A stretch of DNA of 64,000 nt, from positions 5,312,001 through 5,376,000 of the forward strand of contig OZ242311.1 in NCBI GenBank assembly GCA_965207885.1, written 5' to 3'. This DNA is from Candidatus Latescibacterota bacterium (GTDB lineage: Bacteria > Latescibacterota > UBA2968). This document shows, in pieces, positions 10,811-29,420 of the stretch (positions are counted from its first letter, which is position 1; every line of letters begins with the position of its first letter). A program made the position numbers and the translations under genes. Below the pieces are notes generated by a model. It was not told the origin of the DNA. It did no database searches and saw only the letters and a program-made list of their open reading frames with translations.

Positions 10811-11056
10811 CTATCTCCTCAAATAAGGTCCTCTGATGACTCATTAACTGACGTTACGCATAGATCGCCTGTCATTCCCATTTCATAAGCATGACAAGAT
10901 ATAGAGTTGCTACGTAAGGTCAAATATATTTAAATACCGACCTGTCTGTCAGATGCACAGGCTGATGGCAAAACCGTATTGATCGATGTGCAAACCAGCA
11001 TGGAGAGTAAACAATCGCGGTTTTAATCTCTGTCAAAAATACCAGAAGTATAAACC

Positions 11057-11087
11057 AAAAAACCACGCCCAAAGGACATGGTTTTTT
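11057..11087 (-). terminator. intrinsic terminator closing the RiPP/T1SS operon
   Basis: Minus strand CCATGTCC-TTT-GGGCGTGG stem (with G:U pairs) flanked by A6/T6, about 60 bp after the PPIase stop. Confidence 0.75.
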
Positions 11088-11147
11088 GTTAATAGAAGAT
11101 ACAACTAAAAATAGGAAATTACATACAAAAGTGACAAAGGTAATTCA

Positions 11148-11969
11148 CTACTCCTCTGAGACATTCACATCCTCTTTGGGAAGCGCGTCCTCTGTACATA
11201 TCGAATCCAAGAATGGGTAAGATATGTGGTTTCGTTTTGCCTCGCGTCTTAAACGGAGTTGATAGAGTTCCTGCACACAACGCGCTTTTGTAGCTTCATC
11301 GAGCACAGCGAGGCAGTGTTGTTGAATATAGTACAGCGCATAGCCCGTTTCCACTTTTATGGGACCAATCACCTCACCTACCTCAGCGGCAAATAATAGG
11401 GACGCAACTTCAGCGGGCAAGTCTCGTCGGCTCTGGCGACCGAGATAACCACTTGCAGGGCGCGTGTGCTCATCGAGGGAATATTGACGCGCGAGGGTGT
11501 GAAAATCTCGCCCACCATCCTTGATCTGCATCGCAATCTCTTCGGCAATGTCCTGTTCATTGACCAGAATCCAGCATATTTCCCGACGTTCAGACGCCAG
11601 TTTCTGGCTTGCAAAATGCGTTTGAATCGCTTCAGTAGTGATTTGCGCTTTCAAACGCTCCTGGAGCATCTGATATTCAATTTCCCGTGCCATGTCAGTG
11701 AAGGTGATATTGCGTTGTGATAACCAGTTTTCCGTATCTTCAACACTTTCCAATCTGTTTTTGTACCGCCATTGGTCTATCCCCTTTTGCAGTTCATTTT
11801 GAGGAATTTTAATTTTTTCTCGTTGGGCGATTTGAAAGACCAGACCGCGTTGCGTAAAGAGCTCGTGCAAGCTGTCCTTGTTAGTCGCCCGCATTGATTT
11901 CACGATATGGGACAAGCGAATTTGTGTCTCGTTTATTTGAATGATGACGGGGTCAATTGAATTTGCCAT
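11148..11969 (-). CDS. PpiC/rotamase-type peptidyl-prolyl isomerase associated with a peptide export cluster
   Basis: F..LARQYSLD..T....GYLG...R..LP and GEVIGPIK rotamase signature. Resembles PPIases that accompany PCAT/HlyD bacteriocin clusters. Confidence 0.82.
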   Translation of the reverse strand: MANSIDPVIIQINETQIRLSHIVKSMRATNKDSLHELFTQRGLVFQIAQREKIKIPQNELQKGIDQWRYKNRLESVEDTENWLSQRNITFTDMAREIEYQMLQERLKAQITTEAIQTHFASQKLASERREICWILVNEQDIAEEIAMQIKDGGRDFHTLARQYSLDEHTRPASGYLGRQSRRDLPAEVASLLFAAEVGEVIGPIKVETGYALYYIQQHCLAVLDEATKARCVQELYQLRLRREAKRNHISYPFLDSICTEDALPKEDVNVSEE

Positions 11970-11970
11970 T

Positions 11971-13320
11971 TTATTTTTCAGCCTCTGGAGAAAGCGCGGC
12001 CAGGTCGCGCAATTGCCGCAGTGGATTGAGTGCGAGCATCAAAATGGACTGGCGGTCTGTTATGATTTCTGCCGCGCCCTTCATGCCAAACATAAATGCT
12101 TTTTCCTCGCCGTGTACAAGAATGGTCGTGTACTCCAGATCAATAATGCCTCTAAACACAGTTCCCGAACCGTCATCGCCCATTGCGTCAGGTGAAATCT
12201 GTCTCAAATAGCCGTGCTGGATGCCGTAGTCCTGAAATGGAAATGCTTCAAATTTGAGCTTTACCTTTTGTCCAGATGACAGCAGGCCCACGTCTTTATT
12301 TAATATCAGGGCTTCGGCTACAATCGGCGTCGAGGCCGGTGCAATAGTTACCAGTGTCTGGCCTTTATTGACCACTTGACCTGGTGTATTGACCAGAACT
12401 TGTGTGACGATTCCCGGTTCAGGTGCAAGAATTAGATCGATGTCTGCATCAACAGATCGATTAACCGTTTGTTTCGCTTGTTTGAGTCTGATTTCTGCAA
12501 TGTCATAAGCATTTTGGAAGTTTGCCCGAGTGCGTTCGAGTTCGAGTCGTTCTTCGAGAATTTGGCGTTTTAAGTCCTTTAGGGAAACCTCATAACGATT
12601 GATCTCTGCCATCCGCGCGGGCAGTTCTGCCAATGCGCTCAGATAGCGGACTTTGGCTTCATCGCGTGCCGCAAGGCTGATGAGTCTCTTTTCGTACAAT
12701 TTTTGGTTTTGTTCATATTGTTGTTTCAAATGTTCTACTTCTGCGGAACGGAATTGTATTTCGATCTCAAGGTCGGGGGGTTGAGACGTTTCTGTGTGTT
12801 TTCCAAGTGCTTCCCGGTAGGTCTGCATTGCTGTTTGCATGACGTGAACGCGATGCTCAAGCGCGGAGATGGTCTCTTTTGCCAAAATTCTTTTTTGCGG
12901 CAGGGTTTGTTGCAGATCAAATTCTGCTTTTTTGAATGCGATTTCTGCTTGTTCCAGTTCGCGGAACTCCTTGAGGGTTTCTTGCGAGCGGAGTCTGAAT
13001 AAGATCTGCCCTTCAGCAATCAGGTCCCCCGAATGGATAGCGATTTCCTGGATTTCGCCAGAACGCGGTGCCTGGATGTTCTGAACCTTTCCCAATGGGA
13101 CCAGACGAAATGGGGCTGTTGCGACAACATCGACCTGACCGTACCAGGCCCATGCTATGGAGATGGCAATAAAAAGCAGCAGAATATAAATAAGCGCGCG
13201 GCTGAAAAAAGGGTGTAATGATCCTAAAAACTCGATGGTGCTTTCGGCCAAATCCGTTTCGTTTTCAAGCGGTTTTTCGCGTGGTTCTATTGGCAATTTT
13301 TCAATTTGAGCTTCGGCCAT
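11971..13320 (-). CDS. HlyD family type I secretion membrane fusion protein
   Basis: N-terminal TM helix, coiled-coil middle, ILAPEPG, LKFEAFPFQDYG, GMKGAAEIIT. Confidence 0.92.
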   Translation of the reverse strand: MAEAQIEKLPIEPREKPLENETDLAESTIEFLGSLHPFFSRALIYILLLFIAISIAWAWYGQVDVVATAPFRLVPLGKVQNIQAPRSGEIQEIAIHSGDLIAEGQILFRLRSQETLKEFRELEQAEIAFKKAEFDLQQTLPQKRILAKETISALEHRVHVMQTAMQTYREALGKHTETSQPPDLEIEIQFRSAEVEHLKQQYEQNQKLYEKRLISLAARDEAKVRYLSALAELPARMAEINRYEVSLKDLKRQILEERLELERTRANFQNAYDIAEIRLKQAKQTVNRSVDADIDLILAPEPGIVTQVLVNTPGQVVNKGQTLVTIAPASTPIVAEALILNKDVGLLSSGQKVKLKFEAFPFQDYGIQHGYLRQISPDAMGDDGSGTVFRGIIDLEYTTILVHGEEKAFMFGMKGAAEIITDRQSILMLALNPLRQLRDLAALSPEAEK

Positions 13321-13358
13321 TGAAATTCCGTTTTTTGTAATGTGTTAGCACGCTCGCG

Positions 13359-16325
13359 TTACACGACCTGCAATTGTTGTCCCGATAGATTGCAATAAAG
13401 TCCTTGTTCTGCGATGAGTGTATCGTGCGTGCCCTGTTCAATAATGTTCCCGTCATCCAGTACAAGGATCAAATCCGCATCTTTTACTGTGCTCACCCGG
13501 TGGGCGATGATAAACGCGGTCTTACCTTCCAGCATGGTGTCTAACCCTTCCTGAATCGCTCGCTCGGACTCTGTATCCAGAGCATTGGTGGCCTCATCAA
13601 AGATGATAATTTTGGGGTCGCCATATAGTGCTCTGGCAATGGACAGGCGTTGTCGCTGACCACCGGAAAGTCCCACACCCTGTTCCCGAATTTTGGTTTC
13701 ATATCCCATTGGCAGGTCTTTGATAAAGTCGTGGGCATAAGCGAGTTTGGAAACTTCCATCAAACGATCCATATCGACATCTTTGACCCCTATGGCGATA
13801 TTTTCGGTGATGGTGGCATTGAACATGACGGGTTCTTGCAAAACCATCCCCACCTGACGCCGCAACCATCCAGGATCAAATTCGCGCAGGTCTGTGTCAT
13901 CGAGGGTAACGCACCCCTCTGTGGGATCAAATAGTCGGGGTATGAGTTTTACCAGTGTTGTCTTGCCCGCACCGCTACGGCCTACTATGGCTACTTTCTG
14001 GCCGGACGATATGTCCAAATTTATGTCGCTTAAGACATAAGGTTCTGTCGATCCCGATCCATACCGGAAGAATACATCGTCAAATGCGATGTGTCCTTCT
14101 ACGTCTGTGAGTTGAACCGAATAGTTGCGGTTGCGCGATGACTCGGTTCGCATATCGTAGATATCGTTTAATCGGTCCAGCCCCATTTTTGCCAGTTGAA
14201 TCTGCGGCCACAGGTTAATCAATCCCATAATTGGTCCCAATACCCTGCCACTGAGCATATTGAATGCGATTAGTTGACCGACAGATAAGTCGCCCTGAAT
14301 GACCAGGTTCGCGCCATACCAGAGCACGATGGTGCTGCCCAAAACATTGTTTAGCTGTCCAAAAGACCCAAATAGCATATTTGTTTTGATTGCAGTAAAA
14401 CCAATTTTTATTTCCTGGGTCAAGCGTTCTTCCCAGGACCATCGCGTGGATTTTTCGACTGCGAGGGTTTTTATGACTTCAATGCCGCGTAGAGAATCAA
14501 TGAGTAAGGATGACCATTCTGAGCGGGCGAGAAAAGAGCGCTGGTTGATGGACTTGAGGATTGGGGTGTAGATTAAGGTCAGGATAATGCTAAACGGTAT
14601 GAATGCCAGAACATAGAGTGTCAAAGTGGTGTGGTAATAGAACATCAAGCCCAGATAGACAAAGATCATGATTGCATCAAGGACGGCTGAAATAGCCGTT
14701 TCTGTCAACAAGCTCCTCAAGTATTGGCTCTCTCGAAATCGCGTCATGATTTCACCGGTTCTGCGGAGGGCGAAAAACCGCATGGGCAGACGGAGGAGAT
14801 GGTGGTAGATGTGTGATAACATCGAGATGCTGATGCGCGCTCCCACATATCCAATCAGGTAGTTGCGCAGTGATGATGTGGCGATCCGAAATAAGGTGAT
14901 GATGATCATGCCTAAGAGCAGGAGATTGAGCAGACTATTATCCTGGTGAACGAGGACTTGATCGAGGATCATCTGGGTGAACAGAGGAGAAGCAAGGCCA
15001 AAGAGGTTCAGTACAAGGGAGGCGATCAGGATTTCGATGAGAATGCCGAGGTATGGACGGGCGAGTGGGAAAAACCGCCTGAACGATGATTTTCTTCCCC
15101 TGTATCTTGCGACCTTGTCGGTGTATTCAAGTATTAAGGCGAGTTTGGACCACTTGTCTTCAAATTCTTTGCGGGAGATTTTTCGGCGTCCAAGTGCAGG
15201 GTCGGCGATCCATGCGTATTTTGAACTGATGCGATACAGAACGACAAAGTGATAGCCTTCCCAGTGTGCGATAAGCGGCAGGTCTCTTTCTCCGATTTCA
15301 CTGTATCCAATCCGCACGCCGCGCGTTAAAAAGCCCAGGTTTTCAGCGGCTTCGGCAAGTGCGGATAGGGATGTGCCTTCCCGCGAGACATTGGCCATGT
15401 CTCGAAGTCGGTTTAATCCAATGGATTGTCCATAATATTGACAGATCATGCCGAGGCAGGCCGCGCCGCAATCGGTCTCATCGTGTTGCTTGATGTAGGG
15501 AAATGTGATGTAATTTCGCAGTTTTCGAGGGCTTTGATCAGAGATGCTATTTTCAGGCTCGATTTCTATTGTTTTAATTCGACCATTTTGCGGCACTGTC
15601 TCGCGCGGCTCTTCTTGTTCATTTTTCTCGAAGATCCGAATGAGTTGGGGAGCACTTTCAAGCACTCTGGCAAAGTCGCTGTGCGAAAGGGTGTAGAGCA
15701 CGACTTCTGTTTCTGTTTCAATAGTGATTTCATCACACTGCATGCCGCTAAAAAAGTCGCCCGGCTTTAACCTTTTGGAAGGCTGGTTCCCCTCTCTCAA
15801 CTGCAAGGTTCCGCGGCCAATGAGATAGAGTTTTTTTGCTTCTTCATCCTGCCATACTGCTTTTTCTCCTTCCGCAATAACCTTCCGCGCCAGACATTGG
15901 AAAAAGAGCTGCATAACCTCCTGGAGGTTTACGGTGTCCAGCGCTATGAATTTTGTGAAGTTTCGATAGGCGATGTCTCGCACTTGATCGAGCAGGTATG
16001 GAGTCAGTTCCCGATGCTCTGATACGAGGGCGTGAAAGTTGCCCTGAGAAATTTTCAGTACGATTGAGGATTCAACCGCTCGAACCGTTGCCCTGCGCGG
16101 TTTGCCCGTGAGCAATGCGCCTTCTCCGCAATGGTCGCCGGGAAAGAGATAACCGAGGGTCTGCATCTCATCATTGCTGTCTCTCGTTAAAACCCTGAGT
16201 TGCCCGGATACGACATAGTAAAAGCAATCGCCCCTGTCGCCTTCATAAAACAAAACCTCTCCGAGATTGACCTGCATTTCCTCTGCATGAGGTCTCAGAG
16301 AGGCATATAGATCGGTTCGTTTCAT
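13359..16325 (-). CDS. peptidase-containing ABC transporter (PCAT): 2 x cNMP-binding + C39 peptidase + ABC TMD + NBD
   Basis: cNMP motifs (GEGALL...PRRATV). C39 triad intact: QHDETDCGAAC, HWEGYHFVV, ADP. Walker A GRSGAGKT, signature LSGGQRQR, DEAT. Confidence 0.95.
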   Translation of the reverse strand: MKRTDLYASLRPHAEEMQVNLGEVLFYEGDRGDCFYYVVSGQLRVLTRDSNDEMQTLGYLFPGDHCGEGALLTGKPRRATVRAVESSIVLKISQGNFHALVSEHRELTPYLLDQVRDIAYRNFTKFIALDTVNLQEVMQLFFQCLARKVIAEGEKAVWQDEEAKKLYLIGRGTLQLREGNQPSKRLKPGDFFSGMQCDEITIETETEVVLYTLSHSDFARVLESAPQLIRIFEKNEQEEPRETVPQNGRIKTIEIEPENSISDQSPRKLRNYITFPYIKQHDETDCGAACLGMICQYYGQSIGLNRLRDMANVSREGTSLSALAEAAENLGFLTRGVRIGYSEIGERDLPLIAHWEGYHFVVLYRISSKYAWIADPALGRRKISRKEFEDKWSKLALILEYTDKVARYRGRKSSFRRFFPLARPYLGILIEILIASLVLNLFGLASPLFTQMILDQVLVHQDNSLLNLLLLGMIIITLFRIATSSLRNYLIGYVGARISISMLSHIYHHLLRLPMRFFALRRTGEIMTRFRESQYLRSLLTETAISAVLDAIMIFVYLGLMFYYHTTLTLYVLAFIPFSIILTLIYTPILKSINQRSFLARSEWSSLLIDSLRGIEVIKTLAVEKSTRWSWEERLTQEIKIGFTAIKTNMLFGSFGQLNNVLGSTIVLWYGANLVIQGDLSVGQLIAFNMLSGRVLGPIMGLINLWPQIQLAKMGLDRLNDIYDMRTESSRNRNYSVQLTDVEGHIAFDDVFFRYGSGSTEPYVLSDINLDISSGQKVAIVGRSGAGKTTLVKLIPRLFDPTEGCVTLDDTDLREFDPGWLRRQVGMVLQEPVMFNATITENIAIGVKDVDMDRLMEVSKLAYAHDFIKDLPMGYETKIREQGVGLSGGQRQRLSIARALYGDPKIIIFDEATNALDTESERAIQEGLDTMLEGKTAFIIAHRVSTVKDADLILVLDDGNIIEQGTHDTLIAEQGLYCNLSGQQLQVV

Positions 16326-16358
16326 GATGTTTTCCAGCCCCGCTTTGCATAAAGTCTT

Positions 16359-16931
16359 TTACTCAGCTTCAAATACACGCCACTTTGAGTCGGGTGACTT
16401 CTTGAGCACTGTCTTGTCCGAAAGCAGAACCTGAAATATGTATCGACTGCCATTAACAGGCATCTGTGCATGGACTGAATAGCAACGCCGGCACGCCTTT
16501 ATCTTGATCTCTGTGTCACAGGGGATACAGTCCATGTGTCCTGAAGGGTTTCTTTTACATCGCAGGCACTCAATTTGTTCGATCAGGTTTTTGTTCCGTT
16601 CCTGGTATTTCACCAACTCGCCAGGAGCTATCATGGCACCTATATACTCCAGACCTGCAGAGTGACACTCTTTGCAGTACCATCCTGAAAAGTCGCCGTA
16701 CACGAGTTGACAATTACCACATATGGAAATGTACTCCACATCTGGCTCGCGATTCTCAAAACGCCTGAAGTATGCCAGAATATCGGCCTTATCATCATCG
16801 GACAATTTCTCAAATGGCTGTAGTTTGGATCCACACTCCTGGCAGGGGTCGCCAAAGAAACGTTTTGCCCAGAGACCACCAATTCCCAGGACTACAATAA
16901 TGAGAATGGTCAAAATAATAAACGCTTCCAC
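16359..16931 (-). CDS. membrane-anchored Cys-rich protein with six CxxC motifs (probable multi-zinc-ribbon)
   Basis: N-terminal hydrophobic helix. CQEC, CGNC, CKEC(H), CLRC, CIPC, CRRC. Confidence 0.65.
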   Translation of the reverse strand: MEAFIILTILIIVVLGIGGLWAKRFFGDPCQECGSKLQPFEKLSDDDKADILAYFRRFENREPDVEYISICGNCQLVYGDFSGWYCKECHSAGLEYIGAMIAPGELVKYQERNKNLIEQIECLRCKRNPSGHMDCIPCDTEIKIKACRRCYSVHAQMPVNGSRYIFQVLLSDKTVLKKSPDSKWRVFEAE

Positions 16932-17074
16932 AGTAGGGTCCTCTTGTCAGTGTTTATTGCTATGTCCTCTGCCCTACGGGTTTTCGTCTCTATCCATCTG
17001 TGTCCATCTGCATAAAACGCTCAAATGGACCGCTGCGCAATTATACACCGTTCACTCGCGTTTTTTTTGCGGAT

Positions 17075-18430
17075 CTATTCAATCAATTCTTTGACATCGT
17101 GAATGCGAATATCAACCTCAGGCAAGTGTTTATTCAGAATGTCTATGATGTAATCTTTCGGACCGAGAAAAAGCATGATCATATTCTCCTGTACAAAGAA
17201 TTTTTCGAGAAAAGCTCGCACCTCAACATCGGTGACGGAATCATAACCGCCTTTGTGAGTTGGCGAATTATAGATGGCTTGATATACCTCATTGTCCAGT
17301 CTTCGCTGTAGTGTCAACAACTCATGAGCATAGATGACATTGCGACTTTCACGCAACTCTTTTATTGCCGCCCAAAAGCGGGGATTGTCGGGCAGTTTTC
17401 GGATGAAATCGGACATTTTTACGATCAACGCTTCACTATTATGGAATTGAGGATCAGCAAAAATTTCAAGAAACATGATTCCCTCTGATGATGACAAATT
17501 GCAAGAAGGGCCATAGACCAATCCCAACTCTTCTCTGAAATGTGTATTGAGCAAGCCTTGAGTACCATATCGTACAAGTATCCTGGATATCATTTTTGGA
17601 ATATAGCTCTCTTCTTTTTCTAAATTTCCACAAGGTATCAGCCAAAAACAAAAAATACTTTTTACGCCTGAAAAATTAAATACAAAAGCTGTAGGACCGA
17701 TATTATAATCCGTTATTGGAAATTTCGGTGAATGCACAAACCCCCCTGCCTGTCCGTGTTGCAGCAAGTGGGTCTCTCGCTTTTCTATAACTGGACGAAG
17801 TAGTTTCGAGATCTCAGTAGAATCGAGGTCTGAAATCACCTTAAAAAACACCACGTCTGTTTTCAGCAGTTGATCATAATATTGCGTGATGTCCTTAAGC
17901 GAGAGATTTTTGAGCGTTTTTAAAGATATATGTTTCTTTATGCCTTTTGTTTTTGAAAGTGCAAAATTTTTTATAAACGTATAATCCCGCAGGTAAGCCC
18001 GGTAATCAGCAACCAGCCCTTTTTTTATATCTTGTAATTCAGACTCAGAAAACTCGAGATTATATATGAAATCGCGGACTATTTTTATAGATCTGCCACT
18101 ATTCTCAGATAAGCCATAAATGGATATTGTTCGGTATAGGGTATTAGTAGTGATATTCAGACGAGTACCTAATGCTTCTAATTGATCCATATACCCCTGC
18201 TTTTGGACAGCCTTCCAGATCAATTGTGAGACTACCATTGCAAGCCCAGCTTGATATGGCTGTTCCGCACCGCTCCCAGCTCCGAGGAAGATAATCTCAA
18301 TTTTGGTCAATGGCGCGCGTTTGTCCTGGCGATAAAAAATTTGGTGGTTAGGTATCTCTGCAAAAGCGGGCAGGATACTAACCACGCAGCACAGAGCAAA
18401 ATTAAGTATCACTTTCAGAAACATATTCAT
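17075..18430 (-). CDS. M16 peptidase, non-catalytic subunit, with signal peptide
   Basis: M16 features (GSGAE...AGLA; FREELGLVYG) without HxxEH. N-terminal Sec-like signal ending PAFA. Confidence 0.75.
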   Translation of the reverse strand: MNMFLKVILNFALCCVVSILPAFAEIPNHQIFYRQDKRAPLTKIEIIFLGAGSGAEQPYQAGLAMVVSQLIWKAVQKQGYMDQLEALGTRLNITTNTLYRTISIYGLSENSGRSIKIVRDFIYNLEFSESELQDIKKGLVADYRAYLRDYTFIKNFALSKTKGIKKHISLKTLKNLSLKDITQYYDQLLKTDVVFFKVISDLDSTEISKLLRPVIEKRETHLLQHGQAGGFVHSPKFPITDYNIGPTAFVFNFSGVKSIFCFWLIPCGNLEKEESYIPKMISRILVRYGTQGLLNTHFREELGLVYGPSCNLSSSEGIMFLEIFADPQFHNSEALIVKMSDFIRKLPDNPRFWAAIKELRESRNVIYAHELLTLQRRLDNEVYQAIYNSPTHKGGYDSVTDVEVRAFLEKFFVQENMIMLFLGPKDYIIDILNKHLPEVDIRIHDVKELIE

Positions 18431-18549
18431 TGGTCTTTCGAGAGAACTTCCTACGTAAATTTTTTATCTATAAACAGTGTGACAAGACCACCCAGCAGCG
18501 TTAGAAAATCTACGCCTGTCAATATCATAATTCCATAGTGTAAGGATGT

Positions 18550-19887
18550 TCACGGAGGTGACATTTTCTTTTTTGACACCGTTAGAGAATAGGTTATGGA
18601 ATTGTCATCCGTCATGTACTGGTCTATAATGCGAGGGATGTCTTCTCTGCGAATGGATTTGAGGTCTTTTATCAATTTGGGATATAGGAGGGGATCGTTG
18701 GCGTGGGCAAATGCCTGTCCAAATGAATAAGCCATGTTTGAACGGTTGTAAAATGCGGAATACATTGTGGTCAACTGCTGGTTTCGAGCCGTATTGAGTT
18801 CTGCGTCGGAGATGGATTTCAGATTCTCCAACTCTTTGCTGATCATGTTCTGGAACCTATTTCTGGACGTATCATAGGGTAGTTCTGCATAGCAATGCAT
18901 CAAGCTAAATCCTTTATAGCTGCTGAGTTCCACCTGAAAAACACTTGCGAGCTTAGAACCAACGACGGTAGATCGCAAAGAATTTGAGGACTTATCCAAG
19001 ATATAGTCCAGAATAAGCAGGCCAGCGTAGTCGCGATGTCCTAAATTGGGTGTGTACCAGCCCTTTCTGAATATAGTAACAATGAGATTTTTTAAAGTGT
19101 GTTTTAATCTTTTTCCGAGCACTTCACGGTTCGGATATTGGGGAGAATACGGTTTGCTCGGTATTTGCTCATTGCCATAAGCTTCGTCCAATTTTTTCAA
19201 GACCTGGTCAACATCCACATCGCCGATCACGACAATCAGTCTCTTTTGACGGCGCAGAAAATTCTCATAATACGCTTTCAAATCATCAGATTCGAGTTGT
19301 GTAATAAAAGCCTCAGTACCAAGGTCATTAAAATTCTTTTTTTTGTAAATTAAAGAAAAAAAAGAATTCTTGTGTCTAAGTTTTAAACTTGATAATCTAT
19401 GACTTCTTTCCGTCAGTACGATTTTCTTTTCTTTTTTTATAATTTCCTCATTGATCACTGTGTTGTAATATCTTTCCGAATCTATCTTAACCGCGAGATC
19501 AAACTTATCCTTCGGAAATTTTAGTATAAAGCATGTAAAATGATAATCAGTAAAGGCTTTTTGTTCTCCTTCATTATCTGCGATAATTTGATTGAGTTTC
19601 CCCGGCGCATAGCTGCCAATGCCCGCTATGACATGCTCTAAAAAATGTATCCGTCCTTGTTGACCTTCCTCTTCATCTGCCGAGCCAGCATCATAAAAGG
19701 TATGGTATTCAAAGGTTGGGATTGTTCGATCTACAACAATAACAGCGTCGAGGTTGGGATTGATGGTATAATATTGCGCGACGAGTTCTTCAGATAATGT
19801 GGCTGTGCCAACAAGATCGTAGGCAACGCAAATGCCCGTTGGCAAGACGCATACAAGGAATGAGGTGAGTGCGTAAGTTTTCATCAT
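18550..19887 (-). CDS. M16 (pitrilysin/insulinase) zinc peptidase, catalytic subunit, with signal peptide
   Basis: AGSADE...G.IHFLEH inverted zinc motif, EKKIVLTE. Hydrophobic N-terminus. Confidence 0.85.
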   Translation of the reverse strand: MMKTYALTSFLVCVLPTGICVAYDLVGTATLSEELVAQYYTINPNLDAVIVVDRTIPTFEYHTFYDAGSADEEEGQQGRIHFLEHVIAGIGSYAPGKLNQIIADNEGEQKAFTDYHFTCFILKFPKDKFDLAVKIDSERYYNTVINEEIIKKEKKIVLTERSHRLSSLKLRHKNSFFSLIYKKKNFNDLGTEAFITQLESDDLKAYYENFLRRQKRLIVVIGDVDVDQVLKKLDEAYGNEQIPSKPYSPQYPNREVLGKRLKHTLKNLIVTIFRKGWYTPNLGHRDYAGLLILDYILDKSSNSLRSTVVGSKLASVFQVELSSYKGFSLMHCYAELPYDTSRNRFQNMISKELENLKSISDAELNTARNQQLTTMYSAFYNRSNMAYSFGQAFAHANDPLLYPKLIKDLKSIRREDIPRIIDQYMTDDNSITYSLTVSKKKMSPP

Positions 19888-19969
19888 GTTTGATACTCAG
19901 CAAAGTTGGGAATGGCTGCCTCGCCTATATATATCTGGATACATTCTTGCACTGCACAGTATAAAATCT

Positions 19970-20002
19970 GAAGGTTCTTCCAGCAGGCCTGAAAGAACCT
20001 TC
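19970..20002 (-). terminator. 14-bp stem-loop downstream of the double-glycine precursor (terminator or mRNA-stabilising hairpin)
   Basis: Minus strand GAAGGTTCTTTCAG-GCCTG-CTGGAAGAACCTTC, with one G:U pair. Confidence 0.6.
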
Positions 20003-20059
20003 TTAGTCATGTAATCCCTGAGAAACCGGACTATGTAGTGTTAAACGTGTACAATGGTA

Positions 20060-20656
20060 TCAGTTACCTACTCTCGTATTATCTTGTCCGGTTGTCTCAA
20101 ATCCATCAAAAAGTCCATTCTCATCCTCCTCACCCCCCTCATCATTGGTACCACAATTACCATCACAATTCTCATCATCACAATTCTCACAATTCTCATT
20201 ATCATCTTCTCCCTCACCTTCTCCCTCACCTTCTCCCTCACCACAATCCCCACTGTCGCCATCCTCTGGTCCTGCCATCTGATCACTATAAAAAAACTCC
20301 TCAGCAGCATCTGGATTAACAGGCTGGTTTATTTGCGTCCAGTCGGGTAACTGATCCCCTTCCCTATACATCTCGAGTGGTGATATCTGTGGTCCATTGT
20401 CCCCAAAATTAGGTGATGGTGGTAGCCCAGGTTCAGGAGAACCAAAAACAGAGGTGACAATATCCCAGATGGTAGGTCCCGTGTTCCAATCTATTGGGTC
20501 TTCATCTTTGCATTTACTTTTCCCCCCATCCCCACCCCGAGCCATGTTCATTTCTTGTATTGAAATGGTCTCGGAGAGGATAGAGAGCGGTTTACAAGTA
20601 AGTCCTGTAATGGATGTGGTGATACCTTCACTCTGTTCAGAAATATTTTTTGACAT
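20060..20656 (-). CDS. 198-aa acidic, Cys-containing double-glycine-leader protein (putative PCAT substrate / RiPP precursor)
   Basis: TAGGAG RBS. I31-S-x-x-E-M-x-x-A-R-G-G42 is in exact register with the LSxxELxxIxGG leader consensus. Acidic C-terminus with (GE)6 and an xNC-repeat segment. Confidence 0.75.
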   Translation of the reverse strand: MSKNISEQSEGITTSITGLTCKPLSILSETISIQEMNMARGGDGGKSKCKDEDPIDWNTGPTIWDIVTSVFGSPEPGLPPSPNFGDNGPQISPLEMYREGDQLPDWTQINQPVNPDAAEEFFYSDQMAGPEDGDSGDCGEGEGEGEGEGEDDNENCENCDDENCDGNCGTNDEGGEEDENGLFDGFETTGQDNTRVGN

Positions 20657-20667
20657 AATACTATCTC

Positions 20668-21538
20668 CTAGGTAGTGTCTGAAAAGTAAGCTTTGAAGAG
20701 TTGTCTGATACAGGCCAGCTTGACCATAGTGAGAAAATGAGTCGCCTTTTTTTCAAATCGGGTCACAATCCGTCGGCAGTGTTTAAGCCAACCAAAGAGA
20801 CGCTCCACGATATTGCGTTTGGCATATAATCTTTTATCACACTTAGGCCGTGGTCCTCTCTTACGCCGTTTTCTGCCTTTGGGAATCGCCTTGTTTGGGA
20901 TAGCAGCCTTGATACCCCGTTTGCGTAGATAGACTCTGATGCGTGAGACATCATAAGATTTATCAGCTACCAGATACTTGGGTCGGTTTCTTGGACGCCC
21001 TCGTTTGGTGGGTATGCATACCTTTGACAGTAGCCTTTCAGCCTGTGTGGATTCTGACTGGTTACCAGGGAGAAGATCCACTGCTAAAGGATGCCCGACT
21101 GCATCGCAAAGAAGATGGATTTTCGTGGTCAAACCGCCACGAGAGCGTCCTAAAGCGTGATCTGGGGGCTCTTCTTCACCCTTTTTGCCCTTTTTTTTTC
21201 GCTCCTGCCGCGGCTTGTGTGGCTCGAATATGGGTTGCATCCATCATCCAGGTCGCATAATCTAAAAGACCATCTTCACCCAATTTGAGATGTAGCTTTT
21301 CTACAATGCGATCAAAGGTGCCATCCTGTTTCCATTTGCAGAATCGGTCAAAGGCTGTCTGCCAAGGACCATATCGTTCTGGCAGGTCGCGCCAAGCTGC
21401 ACCTGAACACAATATCCAGAAGATCCCGTTGAATAATGTACGATCATCCCGACGGGGACGACCCATCTTCTTCGGCGGTGGGAACAGGTCTTGGATCAGA
21501 TGCCAAGCCTCGTCGCGCAGTTCATATCTCCGTTGCAT
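20668..21538 (-). CDS. IS5-family transposase (ORF A 21176..21538 and ORF B 20668..~21200, joined at an A9 run)
   Basis: GRPR.DDR..FNGIFW.L.SG..WRDLP.RYGPWQT; GRSRGGLTTKIH; VADKSYD; RNIVER.F..LK..RRI.TRFEK. Confidence 0.92.
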
Positions 21539-21607
21539 ATCATACTCCTTGGTTTAGGGCGTATGCTGCAACTAAAATACATACTTTACGACTTTTCAGA
21601 CACTACC
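20671..21607 (-). mobile_element. IS5-family insertion sequence (two-ORF, IS427/IS1031-like)
   Basis: Perfect 17-bp terminal IRs GGTAGTGTCTGAAAAGT / ACTTTTCAGACACTACC. Inserted in CTAG with TA duplicated (20669-20670, 21608-21609). Confidence 0.92.
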
Positions 21608-21642
21608 TAGTAAGGGTTATTACTTGTGGATTGATTAAAATC

Positions 21643-22586
21643 TCACTTAAGAAATTTTGCTGTCTCGCCATCTTTACACGTACGATCTCTGTCGTGAAAA
21701 AATAGAAAGTTGCGAAAAAACGTATTGACGATTGTCATATAACAGGCATTCTGTTTTCTTTTTTGAGCTTCTGGTGGAAGATCCGTGAACTCCTGGATGC
21801 GCTCAGGTGTCACCCCATGGATGTCGCGAATGGTATTGAACAGACCAATCAGATCTGTTTCACAGCAGTTATTCGCTTTAGCCAGCACGCTCAAATACAC
21901 ATCATCAACATGCGATAATGCCTTTGCAATTCGGGTGCGAGTCTCACTGACAGACTGAACATCCGAAAGCCTATCAGGCGCATCCCAACACGGTGTCACG
22001 GATTTGATCTTACGCAGCACGGCCAGATGGTGGTCTTCGCGGATAATCTCCACAGCAAAACTACTGGGATAGACGGACAGCCAGTTCTCGACAATTTGCT
22101 TCTCATAAGACCTTCTGAAATCGTCCAGAATGACCAGACCACCAATCTTGATCTGGTCATAAACCTGGTAAAGGCATGCCTCCCGACCTCGCAAGGTATA
22201 GACTGGCGGACCATCAATAACCACGCAATCTATCTCTTCCTTCCAAAACACCCCATCTTCATAAGTCAAAAATTCCGTATCTCCATAAGATTCAAGGGTA
22301 ATTGGACGATGTTTGATCGATAGATTGCGCTTATCCCAGAATGTTTGCATCAGACTCAGGGTCTCTGCAAAATTCCGCCAGTCGCCTTCTATAGACAGAA
22401 CCTCGGTTCCAAAAACGCCATCGCCAGACGGATAGAACTCGGACCACTTCCAAATTCGAGAATTCTTTCTACTGGAGACATCTGAAGAAGCGTGGTTGCG
22501 ATTCTCTCAAACGCTGTCTCACCAATGCTCCAGCCCGCGTCCAGATTAAGCCGATCCGGTATTTTGAGGTCGGAAATTTTATGCAT
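21643..22586 (-). CDS. class I SAM-dependent methyltransferase (Methyltransf_24-like), split by a 1-nt frameshift near 22412
   Basis: ILEFGSGPSS motif I in ORF 22389..22586. One extra T in the T5 run continues into GTEVLSIEGD...VVIDGPP...GGLVILDD in ORF 21643..22350. Confidence 0.8.
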
Positions 22587-22589
22587 GCC

Positions 22590-24032
22590 TTACTTCTTTA
22601 CTTCAGATACCACTTCCAGATCATATCGTCGCTGCAACAAAGACGCATCTTCCTCTGCAATCTCCATACACATCTCCATCGCCAATTCATAGCGATAGCG
22701 CGTCTGTTCACAAGCAACAGGGTTGGGATACATCGGATCACCCGTTGTCGTCCGCGCCTCCCAAAGACATCCGCCACCACACAGGTTGCGCGCCCAGCAC
22801 GTCTTGCACTCAGGACGATTATTCACATTGAACTGCGCGTCAAAATGCTGCTGCTTTTCGCGGTCAATACCCGCAAACACATCACCCATCTTAAACTCGG
22901 GCGCATCGGCCAAACTCGAACAAAAATAAATCGACCCATCTGCTGCAATAGCCAGATACTGCTTGCCACCCAGGCATCCATGACAGGATTTCTGGCGCGT
23001 CAACAGTTTCTGAATCCGCGGATCAAACTCTTCACTCTCTTCACCATTTAGAATGGCTTTGAGCGCACGCCTACTCCGCTTGTAAATTTGCTGCTTCAAC
23101 GCAGGTATGTGTTCTTCCCGAATCGCATAAGGCGCATCCGGTGAAACAACAGCCGGACCAACAAGCGCGTTATCAGTACCCAGAGAACGCAACGCATCGG
23201 CAATCTGATCCTCGTCCATATCATACGCTGTCATAACAGCCTGCAAATACACCCTCTCGGGAACCTCAGCAGTCAATTTCTGTACATTCTTTGCCACAAC
23301 ATCATAAGTGCCAGAACCATTGTGAAACTTGCGAATGCGGTCCTGTGTCTGACGCCCACCATCCAGACTGACCTTAATTTGAAACTTTTCATCAACCAAA
23401 AACTGCTTCATCTCGTCGGTCAACAACGTGCCATTGGTCACAATGCCAAAACCAACCTGCACACCCAATCGCGCTGATAGGGATTTGGCAAATGGGACAA
23501 GCTCCTGCATCAATGGAAAATTCAGAAGCGGCTCTCCGCCAAAAAAATCAATCTGGCATCGTCCCAATACCTGAGCCTCGGCAACAATCCAGCGTATGGC
23601 TTGCTCGGCAACATCTATTTGCATCAGCATCGCCTTACCGCCATAATCTCCACCGTGGGCAAAGCAATAAGCACACTGAATATTGCAAGTATGGGAAACG
23701 TGCAAAGACACCTGCAACCGATCTGTCTGCGATACGCCACAGGCTGCCACCCCTTCTGTCGTCGGCACACTGGATACCAGAGGCAAAGCACCATCCGAAA
23801 TCAAACCCACCTGGGACAGTTCCTCAATGGCCTCGACAATTTCTTCTGCCTCGTATTGATCAGCCAACCTCTGAACAACCTGCGAAACAGACAAACCCTC
23901 GCAACACTCTAAAATCGCCTCGAAAAGAGTATCCAATTTAAAAAATAGACCCGTCTCAATCTGATAGACAATCGGTTGTTCTTGCTCTTCTGTTTGAAAA
24001 AGATGCATTTCACATTTCTGAATGCACAGCAT
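22590..24032 (-). CDS. radical SAM/SPASM peptide maturase with N-terminal RRE-like domain (CteB/PapB/QhpD-like)
   Basis: LHVSHTCNIQCAYCFA (CxxxCxxC), IDFFGGEPLLN, VTNGTLL, VSLDG. SPASM C..CLGG...FC...CKTCWARNLCGGGC...C. GAGGAG RBS 8 nt before ATG 24032. Confidence 0.93.
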   Translation of the reverse strand: MLCIQKCEMHLFQTEEQEQPIVYQIETGLFFKLDTLFEAILECCEGLSVSQVVQRLADQYEAEEIVEAIEELSQVGLISDGALPLVSSVPTTEGVAACGVSQTDRLQVSLHVSHTCNIQCAYCFAHGGDYGGKAMLMQIDVAEQAIRWIVAEAQVLGRCQIDFFGGEPLLNFPLMQELVPFAKSLSARLGVQVGFGIVTNGTLLTDEMKQFLVDEKFQIKVSLDGGRQTQDRIRKFHNGSGTYDVVAKNVQKLTAEVPERVYLQAVMTAYDMDEDQIADALRSLGTDNALVGPAVVSPDAPYAIREEHIPALKQQIYKRSRRALKAILNGEESEEFDPRIQKLLTRQKSCHGCLGGKQYLAIAADGSIYFCSSLADAPEFKMGDVFAGIDREKQQHFDAQFNVNNRPECKTCWARNLCGGGCLWEARTTTGDPMYPNPVACEQTRYRYELAMEMCMEIAEEDASLLQRRYDLEVVSEVKK

Positions 24033-24056
24033 AGCACGCACTCCTCAAAACCCAAA

Positions 24057-24245
24057 TCACTTAGCCTGATCATCAACCTGTTCGAAATCGTCCCAATCGT
24101 CATCATCGGGAAAGGGCAGAGGGGGAACGCCAAAATCACCGGAGGGACAGAGCACTTCAAAACTATGCACAGTTTGGTACATAAGGATGCTACCTTCTTG
24201 ATCTATCGTTCCATTGATCAAAGTCAACTTACGTCGCGTTGTCAT
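24057..24245 (-). CDS. 62-aa putative RiPP precursor peptide
   Basis: AAGGAG RBS. First gene after the sigma54 promoter, directly upstream of the rSAM. Leader RRKLTLINGT, single CPSGD, acidic tail. Confidence 0.78.
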   Translation of the reverse strand: MTTRRKLTLINGTIDQEGSILMYQTVHSFEVLCPSGDFGVPPLPFPDDDDWDDFEQVDDQAK

Positions 24246-24291
24246 GTTACTCTCCTTGATAATGCAAAAATCTTAGATGCCGTTACTATAT

Positions 24292-24308
24292 TGCAAGATC
24301 CGTGCCTA
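24292..24308 (-). promoter_or_regulatory. sigma54 (-24/-12) promoter
   Basis: Minus strand TAGGCACGGATCTTGCA versus consensus TGGCACG-N4-TTGC(A/T). About 47 bp upstream of the precursor ATG and adjacent to a GAFTGA activator. Confidence 0.85.
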
Positions 24309-24323
24309 AAATCGCCTCAGCAC

Positions 24324-24355
24324 AAAAAAAAGCACTTGAAAATGCTCAAGTGCTT
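24324..24355 (-). terminator. intrinsic terminator-like hairpin between the activator gene and the sigma54 promoter
   Basis: Perfect 10-bp IR AAGCACTTGA-N6-TCAAGTGCTT followed by a T-run on the minus strand. Confidence 0.6.
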
Positions 24356-24498
24356 GAAAAACAAAGAGATAAAATTTAAAAATTATTTGTATTGTAAATG
24401 CGGCATCCAAATATATGTGTATCTAATAGATACGCATATAACCGTTCATTTAGGCAAAATATGTATAAATGATTGATTAATATAAAAATAAATTAAAG

Positions 24499-24533
24499 TG
24501 CATCTAAATGATACATTGTCACAAAATGATACA
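24499..24533. promoter_or_regulatory. tandem enhancer-like (UAS) sites for the sigma54 activator
   Basis: TGCATC-TAAAT-GATACA and TGTCAC-AAAAT-GATACA, 18-bp period, about 200 bp upstream of the -24/-12 box across an AT-rich spacer. Confidence 0.6.
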
Positions 24534-24545
24534 TTCGTTCAATAT

Positions 24546-27500: not shown

Positions 27501-29420
27501 ATCTTGCATGCGGTCGTAAATTGCACGCCGACACAACTCCTGTGAAAACCGATATCGATCTTCAGCCTCTCCACAAGCCTCCAAAAGCCCTTCTGCAATA
27601 AGATAGTCCAGCACATCTAACAGTTCTAACTCATCACCGCGCCAAACTGCGGCCAATAGTTCAAAAGAAAAATCACTCAGAAAAACACAGGCGTATTCCA
27701 GCACCCGACGTTGCACAGCAGGCAGAGTAGCTACGCGCCTGTACAAAACCTCTAAAATGCCATCAGACAACAGGGTTTCGGGAAATTCTCCCCACTGCCA
27801 ATCGCCGGACACATTCTGCCAAACCACATCGGCATTGACCAGTGTCCTCATTGCCTCTAAGACAAACAGGGGTTGTCCACCCGTTTCTCTGAATAGGGTT
27901 TGCAAGGCATCAGAAGGTATGGACCGCTCCCCCAACATCGATGCCGCTAAATATCCCACCTCTTCTTGTTGTAAATACTCCAACTGAATCTGAGTCGCCT
28001 CAGCAAGTTCATTGCTGTGTATAAAATTCTCAATTTCCTCTGAAAGCGGTTCCAGGTTAGACCATCGACAAGTCAGGCATAACAAAAACGGACACGGTTC
28101 TGGATCGCGCAACACATACTGCAAAAATTCCAGAATCAATTCATCAAGCCATTGAATATCTTCCAAACTCAATACAATGGGCTGTTTCTGTCGCAGACGC
28201 TTTAATAACTGCGACCAATGCTCCATAATAGAAAACTTGTCCGTCTCTAATGAATCGGGCACTCTCCCCACCAAATCCGTCGTCTTTACCTGCTGAAAAG
28301 CATCAATTAACGCACCGTATATTTGTCCGCCCTCTTCTCGTCCTGCACCTTTCAAACACAGAAAATCATGGATCAAAGCATCGCCCAAGAGTTCTTCAAT
28401 CAGTCTCGTTTTACCCACACCAGACTCACCCGAGATCAGAACTACGCGCTGTTTGCCAGCCTGTACATCCTGCAACATCGCACCCAGTATCTTCATTTCA
28501 GATTCCCGCCCGACAAATTGTGGGCGCACAACTTTTCTATGCACATCGCGCTGCTCGTCCTCCAGCAGCACAAGTTCCGATGGTGCTACATTATTTAAGG
28601 CTTGCACCAACTCCCCTGCCGATTGATAACGATCAACACGATCCTTTGCCAGCAACCTCAGCACAATTTGTTTCATCTGTTCGGGAACAGCGATATTGAC
28701 TTCGTCTATTGGTAGCGGCATCTTTCGAATATGCTTCAGAATAACTGATATGGGATTTTGTCCAGAAAAGGGCGATGCGCCCGTGAGCATCTCGTATAAA
28801 ATCACGCCCAATGAGTACAAATCTGACCGATGATCCACCCACAACCCTTTACCCTGCTCTGGCGACATATATTCTGCTGTACCAATCGTTGCACCCGTCT
28901 GAGTAATGGAAGCACCGTGCAAATGCCTGAATTTCGCCAGCCCCAGATCCAGAATCGTGGTCTCAATCCCCTCTTCTGTTTCCAAAACCATAATATTGGA
29001 TGGCTTGAGATCGCGATGCACCGCACCCTGAGCGTGGACATAAGCCAACCCCTCGGCAATTTGTTGTATCAAATCAAAAAAGTGAGACGCCCGAAATTGC
29101 TCTAACAGTACACGATCAGCAATTATCTTTTCCAATGTCTTTCCGGGCAAATATTCCATTGTAAAATAGGGGCGATCTTCGGCAAAGCCCCAAGTATATG
29201 TGCGCACCAGGCGCGGGTGCTGAAATCTGTTCAACACTTGAAATTCTCTGTGAAAACGGCGGTACACAGCCTTCTGATCCACCATGGTATTCAAGATTTT
29301 GAGCGCGCACTCCTGGCCTTGCTCCAGGTCTAACACCCGATAGACTTCGCCCATGCCCCCGGTTCCCAGGTGCGCCTGGATTTGGTATTTGTTGTCGAGA
29401 ATGGTGCCGATTGCAAACAT
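24546..29420 (-). CDS. 1624-aa Ser/Thr kinase - AAA ATPase - TPR - GAF - sigma54 interaction - Fis HTH transcriptional activator
   Basis: GTGGMGEV, ALK, HRDLKPSN, DLG, GTAEYMSPE. FVGRESE..GESGVGKT (AAA_16-like). Helical TPR region. GAF (RSVLCVPL). GETGTGKE, GAFTGA, WPGNVRELE and C-terminal HTH. Confidence 0.92.
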   Translation of the reverse strand: MFAIGTILDNKYQIQAHLGTGGMGEVYRVLDLEQGQECALKILNTMVDQKAVYRRFHREFQVLNRFQHPRLVRTYTWGFAEDRPYFTMEYLPGKTLEKIIADRVLLEQFRASHFFDLIQQIAEGLAYVHAQGAVHRDLKPSNIMVLETEEGIETTILDLGLAKFRHLHGASITQTGATIGTAEYMSPEQGKGLWVDHRSDLYSLGVILYEMLTGASPFSGQNPISVILKHIRKMPLPIDEVNIAVPEQMKQIVLRLLAKDRVDRYQSAGELVQALNNVAPSELVLLEDEQRDVHRKVVRPQFVGRESEMKILGAMLQDVQAGKQRVVLISGESGVGKTRLIEELLGDALIHDFLCLKGAGREEGGQIYGALIDAFQQVKTTDLVGRVPDSLETDKFSIMEHWSQLLKRLRQKQPIVLSLEDIQWLDELILEFLQYVLRDPEPCPFLLCLTCRWSNLEPLSEEIENFIHSNELAEATQIQLEYLQQEEVGYLAASMLGERSIPSDALQTLFRETGGQPLFVLEAMRTLVNADVVWQNVSGDWQWGEFPETLLSDGILEVLYRRVATLPAVQRRVLEYACVFLSDFSFELLAAVWRGDELELLDVLDYLIAEGLLEACGEAEDRYRFSQELCRRAIYDRMQDVRRRLLHREIGNALEDSEDAEELIEELANHFAAAEERDKAVKYTLMAGKKALEKHAYRQALRRFEAVQQADGVFESQVNAIDFLCDYADTLRNCGQHNKALELLGEAKALLPDDRRDLKARILWNEGGIHSVLQHGEIAKEYMLEALRLYRELDDLDGEVQALGSLAYLCDVSGRHKEALEYMRLEIEKRRVLIDPQKDAFIQVREGQAALVDFRFETAKEYLEVAVKTSQQLGFEHHRIGALNSLQRVYFYLGDLTRTEAVCYEVIGEWRKQGLVYGEAVNFLYLGELALERGDFAEALEYAETSVEGFLQISRRDYIYRAYAIAATVAARMGDTETAFEWAEKASEGTQQTSGMFTGILPLVYCGIGAAFAHAGRIAEAEEAFEQAIECRRESKGDHWARALLIAGEFYLERDDVPKAQVHLEAAKQAFEEMEMSYFLEKTRILLNQLDKSSRKEDLPAIAQAGAASISGISVDTLSVDRLSLLYEVSHELTTERDVKVLLDRTLGNLLAVYPAERVLIAIKNETPKGFVVDAVRYYNVEADDAEELSRGIIRRVIETNEPVLSMDAQTDERLNRYQSVIDYHIRSVLCVPLFHVKEGVIGALYVDHRGIDNAFSEADQTFLQAFANLVGLALVNARMYEQLEEKAQYFQQQVERRYRLDDLVGQSDAMQVVYQLIERASQSDIPVLVQGETGTGKELAARAIHYNSRRKDQRFLSQNCATLSPELLQGELFGHKKGAFTGASEDHKGIFEAADGGTVLLDEIADAPPQLQRSLLRVLQEGEIRRVGETEDREVDVRIIAATNRDLKKEVENGSFREDLYYRLHGIQIDMPPLREHLEDVPLLAGHLLIRAKEEARKSVGGLTVGAIRALTSYNWPGNVRELEHEIRRAVALSEEEGDITPDLFSEAVIHAVSGIFVEYHLSARADAHTQAGGRLQDRMQEYERRLIMDALEKYEGNIKRTAEELGLVRASLYRKMNRLGLR

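Follow-up and report, generated by a model that had tools for sequence, protein, structure and literature searches.

An 18-kb block of co-directional genes in the genome of a Candidatus Latescibacterota bacterium (assembly GCA_965207885.1, contig OZ242311.1) raises the question of whether genes that lie in one row also form one biosynthetic pathway. The block lies within a stretch of 64,000 nucleotides (positions 5,312,001 to 5,376,000 of the forward strand; G000:C1:5312001-5376000), referred to below as the window, of a source genome that consists of a single contig of 6.23 Mb. In the original prediction, which was made from the letters of this stretch, the block was read as a single integrated system for peptides that are synthesized on ribosomes and modified after translation (RiPPs), with two precursors, a radical S-adenosylmethionine (rSAM) enzyme and a dedicated exporter. 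All of the genes listed there were found on the minus strand where they had been placed, including the terminator-like hairpin that closes the block. In order of transcription they are the following: a large regulator; an open reading frame (ORF) of 62 amino acids (aa); the rSAM enzyme; a methyltransferase-like gene; an element of the IS5 family of insertion sequences (IS); a 198-aa acidic protein; two M16 peptidase homologues; a protein with six CxxC motifs; a peptidase-containing ABC transporter (PCAT); a HlyD adaptor; a peptidyl-prolyl isomerase (PPIase); and the hairpin. Comparison with related genomes suggested a different reading, in which the block probably consists of two autonomous cassettes that lie head to tail by chance and do not form one system. 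Cassette A, which extends from the regulator to the methyltransferase, is a ranthipeptide-like new family, and cassette B, which extends from the 198-aa protein to the PPIase, is a new family of PCAT substrates with their export machinery.

Occurrence of the two cassettes in related genomes

The genes of the two halves were not co-conserved across genomes, an outcome that the original prediction had itself named as refuting, and a single two-precursor system is not supported. Throughout the genus, 2 of 37 rSAM matches (34 near-full-length and 3 partial, some of them on short contigs) shared a neighbourhood with an M16 gene, and these were the window and G012:C56. Seven orthologous export loci with PCAT proteins 92-93% identical to that of the window were compared, comprising the window itself, L021 (in G012), L113, L114, L116, L117 and L118, and the last five of these carried neither an rSAM gene nor the regulator in the flanks examined. 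Nevertheless, the export module at these five loci was well preserved, with PCAT, HlyD and PPIase proteins 88-93% identical to those of the window, with a protein carrying a Gly-Gly leader (as the 198-aa protein does) and the M16 pair present, and with the six-CxxC protein at four of the five; moreover, one of the five belongs to a genome that has no rSAM gene. Likewise, 5 of 20 same-genus genomes contained the M16 module and gave no rSAM match, and Gly-Gly proteins were encoded in two genomes without an rSAM match, G009 and G018, the latter of which is 98% complete and encodes a Gly-Gly protein with four core cysteines. In addition, the putative controls of the two cassettes differed. Of 13 Gly-Gly genes, 12 had no sigma-54 element in the 700 nt upstream, and a regulator with a receiver and an AraC-type helix-turn-helix (HTH) domain was encoded upstream of the Gly-Gly genes at L111, L114, L116, L117 and L118.

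Several observations weigh against the separation of the two cassettes. The window and L021 both have the rSAM cassette immediately upstream of a Gly-Gly gene that is oriented alike, and the junctions differ (the methyltransferase and the IS in the window; a 77-aa ORF in L021), so that the adjacency has either recurred or persisted. Between the methyltransferase stop codon and the Gly-Gly gene of the window, neither a terminator-like site nor a receiver/AraC regulator was found; for this reason read-through into cassette B seems to have existed earlier, and cassette B was here probably transcribed from the sigma-54 promoter before the IS arrived. The conserved cassette A, as compared at 15 same-genus loci, contains no protease or exporter, and these functions could in principle come from a PCAT and an M16 pair next to it. 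Gly-Gly stands immediately before the invariant cysteine in 8 of 15 same-genus 62-aa peptides. Furthermore, the core of the 198-aa protein in the window has six cysteines among many Asp and Glu residues, with CX3D/E-like spacings that were read from the sequence, and PapB, a known rSAM maturase, prefers CX3D. On the other side, the Gly-Gly before the cysteine is not conserved across the 62-aa family and is absent from the peptide of the window itself, the number of core cysteines in the Gly-Gly proteins varies from 0 to 7 with none in 3 of 28 cores, and no likeness was seen between the Gly-Gly leader and the motif of the 62-aa leader that a complex model places on the rSAM enzyme. Taken together, a biochemical integration of cassettes A and B appears improbable.

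The whole block (window 10001-30000) had a G+C content of 41-48.5%, compared with 51-57% in the flanks, which fits an island-like origin. When the 23 flanking ORFs of the window were compared with the other loci, no match at 60% identity or more was found. No Rfam family reached its gathering score in 10500-30000. Parts of the stretch were present in sequencing runs labelled as sponge metagenomes; in run X5, 4 out of 10 contigs reached at least 99%. The features of the block are collected in Table 1.

Table 1. Features of the co-directional block, in order of transcription (positions within the window).
Feature	Position	Strand	Basis or content
Cassette A	21.6-29.4 kb	-	Regulator, dyads, promoter, 62-aa peptide, rSAM, methyltransferase
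Regulator, 1624 aa	24546..29420	-	Ser/Thr kinase, STAND-type AAA_16 NTPase, TPR, GAF, sigma-54 AAA+ and Fis-type HTH; Pfam
Three dyad-symmetric sites, putative upstream activating sequences of the activator	24417..24535	-	Position kept in 15 aligned intergenic regions
Terminator-like hairpin at the regulator gene end, just upstream of the promoter	24330..24355	-	Hairpin scan; stem and T-run in 15/15 aligned loci
Sigma-54 (-24/-12) promoter	24292..24307	-	Pattern scan
62-aa precursor peptide	24057..24245	-	Translation, alignment, complex model
RRE-radical SAM/SPASM maturase, 483 aa from GTG	22590..24041	-	Pfam, NCBIfam, structure match
Methyltransf_24-like gene, frameshifted	21643..22586	-	N part 22389-22586, C part 21643-22350
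IS5-family insertion sequence	20669..21610	-	Two overlapping transposase ORFs, 20-nt inverted ends
Cassette B	11.1-20.7 kb	-	198-aa protein, M16 pair, six-CxxC protein, PCAT, HlyD, PPIase
198-aa cassette B substrate	20060..20656	-	41-aa leader ending Gly-Gly, acidic hypervariable core
Hairpin with 14-bp stem, gap between substrate gene and first M16 gene	19970..20002	-	Hairpin scan; possible attenuator, putative function
M16 peptidase with HxxEH, 445 aa, putative active subunit	18550..19887	-	Pfam Peptidase_M16, M16_C; motif and hydrophobic N-terminus in sequence
M16 homologue without HxxEH, 451 aa, putative non-catalytic partner	17075..18430	-	Pfam; signal-like N-terminus in sequence
Six-CxxC protein, 190 aa, one N-terminal transmembrane helix	16359..16931	-	Read from sequence
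PCAT with two cyclic nucleotide-binding domains, C39 peptidase and ABC exporter	13359..16325	-	Pfam, NCBIfam
HlyD-type periplasmic adaptor	11971..13320	-	Pfam HlyD_3; TIGR01843
PpiC-type peptidyl-prolyl isomerase	11148..11969	-	Pfam Rotamase; distant TIGR04500 relative
Terminator-like hairpin at the cassette B end	11056..11088	-	15-bp stem, then T-rich tail

Precursor, maturase and regulator of cassette A

The linkage of the peptide, the rSAM enzyme and the methyltransferase to a kinase-containing bacterial enhancer-binding protein (bEBP) and a sigma-54 promoter was borne out as a co-conserved, RiPP-like unit. Three copies of the rSAM gene with 93-94% identity are present in this genome, the other two lying at L017 and L018, and the gene was detected in 15 of 20 other same-genus genomes, mostly in two or three copies. 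In a sample of the phylum, the gene was found in 25 of 168 genomes, all of them within three families. In 20 loci, an ORF was identified for a peptide that shares this leader and the invariant cysteine. The 62-aa peptide consists of a conserved N-terminal leader, a single invariant cysteine (C33), a Pro-rich segment and an Asp-rich tail, so the earlier description of both substrates as Cys-rich does not hold for this peptide, which has one cysteine. Four positions (M1, N11, G18 and C33) were invariant in the alignment of the 20 peptides; the prolines that follow the cysteine and, in the leader, a motif around KLxL(I/V)NG were nearly so. The Asp-rich tail was restricted to the genus, and Asp after the cysteine was not conserved in the more distant families f2 and f3.

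The rSAM enzyme may start at the GTG at 24041 or at the ATG at 24032, and the latter is the start that matches the paralogues. Searches with Pfam assigned a PqqD-like RiPP recognition element (RRE) to residues 25-78, together with Radical_SAM (1.5e-15) and SPASM (3e-05) domains. The cysteines of the CX3CX2C motif (C119, C123 and C126) and the SPASM cysteines C356, C374, C412, C415, C421, C425 and C444 were invariant in 23 sequences. The structure of CteB (5wgg) was matched at an E-value of 1.5e-61, and the nearest relatives outside the phylum were SCIFF maturases with 29-34% identity. Similarly, a contig scan with the rSAM alignment returned mostly Bacillota SCIFF maturases, with 3 of 80 loci belonging to Latescibacterota. 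The best NCBIfam matches were SCIFF (267 bits; cut-off 425), QhpD (258; 453), Nif11-peptide rSAM (253; 519) and PapB (229; 340), and no match reached its curated cut-off (340-855 bits). By these sequence comparisons the enzyme is in a clade separate from the named equivalogs. The view that the block matches no named family is consistent with the finding that no NCBIfam equivalog covers the rSAM enzyme or either of the two peptides.

The proposal that the 62-aa peptide carries an rSAM-type leader was supported by co-conservation and by a model of the rSAM-peptide complex, which scored 0.72, compared with 0.00 for the best of three controls. Among solved complexes, 58 of 80 attained this mark, as did 2 of 110 mismatched pairs; these counts hold only roughly here, as custom alignments were used in the model. 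Agreement between the runs amounted to 42% of contacts or more, and the partner had a predicted local distance difference test score (pLDDT) of at least 47. The confident contacts joined peptide residues 4-14 and 18-26 with rSAM residues 31-37 and 67-78, which belong to the RRE, and the model thus suggests that the leader docks on the RRE. Since the complex of CteB with its leader is a solved structure, the pass may merely reflect likeness to a known mode of binding.

The regulator matched Pkinase (1.3e-48), AAA_16, TPR, GAF, Sigma54_activat (1.7e-71) and HTH_8, and the HRD, GAFTGA and Walker A motifs were present in its translation. Each of the other two rSAM copies of the genome is preceded by a paralogue of this regulator with approximately 80% identity. 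Among non-window loci with upstream sequence, the regulator was detected by tblastn upstream of the rSAM gene in 22 of 23 (18 and 4 loci), a count that spans three Latescibacterota families and to which L021 and L032, both of which start at the rSAM gene, are uninformative. The sole exception was L030, the rSAM gene of which is itself split. The linkage was kept in families f2 and f3, where the regulators have 40% identity and the rSAM enzymes 44-53%.

The sigma-54 core pattern had a single match in the 64-kb window, compared with 0.06 expected by chance, and of the 23 loci scanned, 21 had an equivalent -24/-12 element in the corresponding position. The elements of a sigma-54 operon were thus all found, namely a promoter with GG at -24 and GC at -12, an AAA+ activator with GAFTGA, and an rpoN gene in the genome. 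Moreover, the three dyads, the hairpin with its T-run, the promoter and the Shine-Dalgarno sequence were conserved in all 15 aligned intergenic regions. The dyads are putative binding sites of the activator, and their sequences fall into two variants, of which one belongs to the six loci that encode a short activator and the other to the nine methyltransferase-only loci; given these two variants, the regulator paralogues may be insulated from one another.

Downstream of the rSAM gene, the 15 same-genus loci carried a methyltransferase (8 loci), a 340-aa activator (5), both (1) or neither (1, L021). The 340-aa protein is a sensor-less sigma-54 activator with AAA+ and HTH domains only, which follows the rSAM gene in one subtype of cassette A (L017 7375-8397; also L009, L015, L023, L024 and L025). 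In families f2 and f3 (L027 7896-15716 and L119 7351-11408), the core is followed by a second rSAM gene (25-30% identical) and GT4 glycosyltransferases, and L027, which belongs to f2, additionally encodes an AraC-HTH protein, a hexapeptide transferase and a class I methyltransferase. At L119 12820-13609, the peptide gene is apparently split over two frames, one with the leader and the other with the Cys/Pro-rich core, and a sigma-54 element was not found there at up to two mismatches. A third copy of the methyltransferase lies at G000:C1:216553-219021 beside a short sigma-54 activator, with no rSAM gene nearby, and is possibly the remnant of a fourth cassette A. A 118-aa AraC-HTH gene that follows the methyltransferase at L018 and L011 was considered as a relic of the receiver/AraC regulator of cassette B; this idea was dropped because such a gene is likewise present behind the distant cassette A of L027.

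Acidic proteins of cassette B and their predicted export

The Gly-Gly export leader that had been proposed for the 198-aa protein was supported by both the leader alignment and a leader profile. The leader, which ends in RGG, was nearly invariant in 12 genes, with G41 and G42 invariant. Among 1.84 billion proteins, the profile recovered 31 cluster representatives at E-values of 1e-10 or lower, always with the leader at the N-terminus, after which a gap followed down to 46 bits; no NCBIfam or Pfam family matched this leader. The cores behind it were strongly acidic. In the 28 cores of at least 40 aa, the median content was 28% Asp and Glu and 3% Lys and Arg; the content of Asp and Glu ranged from 25 to 45% and core lengths from about 100 to 175 aa. 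C-terminal modules were common to the cores in a mosaic fashion.

Both M16 proteins gave M16 and M16_C matches, and the HxxEH motif was present in the 445-aa subunit only. Signal-like N-termini were read from the sequences of both, and the pair probably acts outside the cytoplasm. The active subunit was found in all 20 same-genus genomes and in 11 of 13 genomes of genus g6, usually in several copies. The six-CxxC protein, which travels with M16 pairs, gave only a sub-threshold match to a double zinc ribbon and no Atlas look-alike at 0.9 or more. Further M16 pairs are encoded at G000:C1:406759-409567 and at 882541-886193, the latter accompanied by a six-CxxC protein, with no Gly-Gly gene or PCAT nearby; therefore, the M16/CxxC set appears to be a sub-module of its own.

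The PCAT matched Peptidase_C39 (3e-40), ABC_membrane (3.4e-56) and ABC_tran (1.6e-32), in addition to two stretches that bind cyclic nucleotide monophosphates (cNMP). The HlyD protein matched HlyD_3 of Pfam and scored 206.8 bits with TIGR01843, just below the cut-off of 208.65. The PPIase matched Rotamase (8.1e-14) and scored 69 bits with TIGR04500, which does not reach the cut-off of 180. A second PCAT-HlyD-PPIase trio, with identities of 55, 49 and 38%, lies at G000:C1:2052473-2058583 and is directly preceded by two small acidic ORFs with Gly-Gly-like leaders.

Proposed function, alternative readings and known systems

From the gene content, its co-conservation and the regulatory elements described above, we infer the following course of sensing, chemistry, processing and export. 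In cassette A, the 1624-aa activator would sense a cue, bind the three dyads and open the -24/-12 promoter, from which the 62-aa peptide, the rSAM enzyme and the methyltransferase would be expressed. The RRE would hold the leader while the rSAM/SPASM core forms one intramolecular crosslink from C33 to a residue of the Pro-rich core; by analogy with CteB, PapB and QhpD, this crosslink is most likely a thioether. The methyltransferase, where intact, would add a methyl group. In cassette B, the C39 domain is predicted to cut the acidic proteins after Gly-Gly, and a cNMP-gated PCAT would export them together with HlyD, with the cNMP-binding domains probably gating export. The PPIase would serve as a cytoplasmic helper, and the M16 pair with its signal peptides would act outside the cytoplasm.

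The alternative that survives best concerns the state of this copy. The block might be decaying and largely silent, with the methyltransferase a pseudogene and the export genes severed from the promoter by the IS, while working copies lie elsewhere in the genome, as represented by the A cassettes at L017 and L018 and by the second PCAT trio. The methyltransferase gene was indeed present as predicted and is Methyltransf_24-like, but the 235-aa ORF that had been taken for it is the C-terminal part of a gene of approximately 300 aa that is broken by a frameshift near 22406, beside a T-run. This ORF alone gave no Pfam match; the intact 302-aa paralogue at L018 11492-12400 matched Methyltransf_24 at an E-value of 0.003, below the cut-off, and 26 of 30 Atlas look-alikes belonged to that family. 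Homologues numbered 280, and all of the 120 listed were approximately 300 aa long. In contigs of run X1, about half of the depth at 22406 lacked the extra base seen in the paralogue, which is consistent with a frameshift in the reads, and X1 is possibly the assembly's own source. Because the reading frame is broken, the methylated product that was originally proposed is doubtful for this copy. An AlphaFold2 model of the methyltransferase fold (17-row alignment, 81-91% identical) had a mean pLDDT of 39.3, too poor for use. In the RNA run X19, contigs with 90-99% likeness covered parts of the methyltransferase and the IS and none covered the rSAM gene, a coverage that speaks neither for transcription nor for silence of the genes of this strain.

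The IS5-family element is also present as predicted, but it is located in an intergenic 5' leader and not inside a gene. It is 942 bp in length, and the genome contains 23 full-length copies, all of them 100% identical, and transposition may therefore have occurred in a recent burst. The element is inserted 12 nt upstream of the ATG of the 198-aa gene, where it disrupts a conserved 5' box that 12 other Gly-Gly genes also have in front of them. Against decay, every other ORF in the block is intact, an AGGAG is retained just before the ATG and the transposase is co-directional, so read-through is possible, and the frameshift beside the T-run could be an assembly error. Decay of this copy is thus possible, though rather unlikely.

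A further alternative concerns the product of cassette A, which might be an intracellular signal or a cofactor-like molecule coupled to the regulator of the same cassette, for instance by serving the kinase/GAF activator as a ligand or substrate. The lack of a protease and an exporter in the conserved cassette, the strict linkage of a giant sensor-regulator to the rSAM gene and the two dyad variants, which track two locus types as though the circuits were kept separate, are all in agreement with such a role. Moreover, the protein that is matured by QhpD, which was a near-equal NCBIfam match, is a subunit of an enzyme and not an antibiotic. However, this argument is purely inferential, exporter genes can lie elsewhere in the genome, and SCIFF-type systems also lack exporters, so that an intracellular product is considered unlikely. 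It is more doubtful still that cassette A represents a new RiPP class, defined by one crosslink that is anchored at a single Cys and reaches into a Pro-rich core, in place of the Cys-Asp ranthionine pattern, and by insulated paralogous sensor-regulators with matching operator variants in two to three copies per genome of sponge-associated Latescibacterota, which here and in one other genome has captured the promoter-proximal position of cassette B, is co-regulated with it and could share its processing and export. Finally, an integrated pathway, in which the rSAM enzyme, with or without the methyltransferase, modifies both precursors, the M16 pair trims them, PCAT and HlyD export them and the kinase-bEBP controls all, has in its favour the adjacency in two genomes and the lack of a terminator-like site between the methyltransferase and the Gly-Gly gene, and is scarcely to be expected when rSAM genes and export modules so regularly occur apart.

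The reading of two autonomous cassettes corrects an over-reading, as adjacency in one genome had mimicked one elaborate pathway that comparison across relatives splits. Both cassettes are uncharacterized, lineage-restricted families in uncultured sponge symbionts. With four genes and one cysteine, cassette A offers a compact test case for a SCIFF-like maturase acting on a non-canonical core, and it raises the question of what a 1600-aa sensor is needed for in a RiPP operon. Cassette B presents recombining polyacidic proteins that are predicted to be exported behind one leader and could bind cations or act on a host, and the conserved leader is a handle for finding all of its substrates. In a literature search that left supplements aside, no paper was found that deals with the family of 62-aa peptides, with its linkage to a kinase-bEBP, with the family of Gly-Gly leaders or with the acidic cores behind them, and a search for 'ranthipeptide' together with 'sigma-54' likewise found no paper.

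With regard to known systems, the rSAM enzyme of cassette A shares with the SCIFF/CteB, PapB and QhpD maturases the N-terminal RRE, the CX3CX2C motif and the full set of SPASM cysteines, and in all of these the short precursor is encoded just upstream. Unlike those systems, the precursor of cassette A has a single cysteine followed by a Pro-rich segment instead of a multi-Cys or CX3D-repeat core, and a dedicated kinase-bEBP and a sigma-54 promoter are linked to it. In PMC12993501, 'ranthipeptide' and 'RRE' clusters are listed by antiSMASH in metagenome-assembled genomes of sponge-associated Latescibacterota, and these may or may not be the same as cassette A.

Cassette B resembles several known systems in its parts. 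The double-glycine/PCAT-HlyD systems, of the class II bacteriocin and NHLP/Nif11 types, also combine a C39-ABC fusion with a HlyD adaptor and place one conserved Gly-Gly leader before many divergent cores. In contrast to them, the cores of cassette B are long and strongly acidic rather than small and cationic, its leader lies outside the NCBIfam and Pfam families, and the module contains no modifying enzyme and adds two cNMP-binding domains on the PCAT, an M16 pair that is probably secreted and a membrane protein with six CxxC motifs. Pairs of M16 peptidases occur in RiPP pathways, as in PqqF/G and AlbE/F, where adjacent homologues, one with HxxEH and one without, correspond to those of cassette B. 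Unlike these, both subunits of cassette B have signal-like N-termini, and at two other sites of the genome such pairs, with or without the CxxC protein, occur with neither a Gly-Gly gene nor a PCAT. The cluster for the graspetide rosaritide, according to those passages of PMC13097080 that describe it, encodes a precursor, an ATP-grasp enzyme, a PpiC-type protein of TIGR04500 and a PCAT. As in cassette B, a PpiC-type protein thus stands beside a PCAT with a precursor cut at Gly-Gly, whereas cassette B has no ATP-grasp ligase, its substrates are proteins of 150-200 aa and its PPIase falls below the TIGR04500 cut-off. Since the TIGR04500 protein of the rosaritide cluster was co-expressed with the synthetase, as those passages state, the PPIase of cassette B may likewise be a helper.

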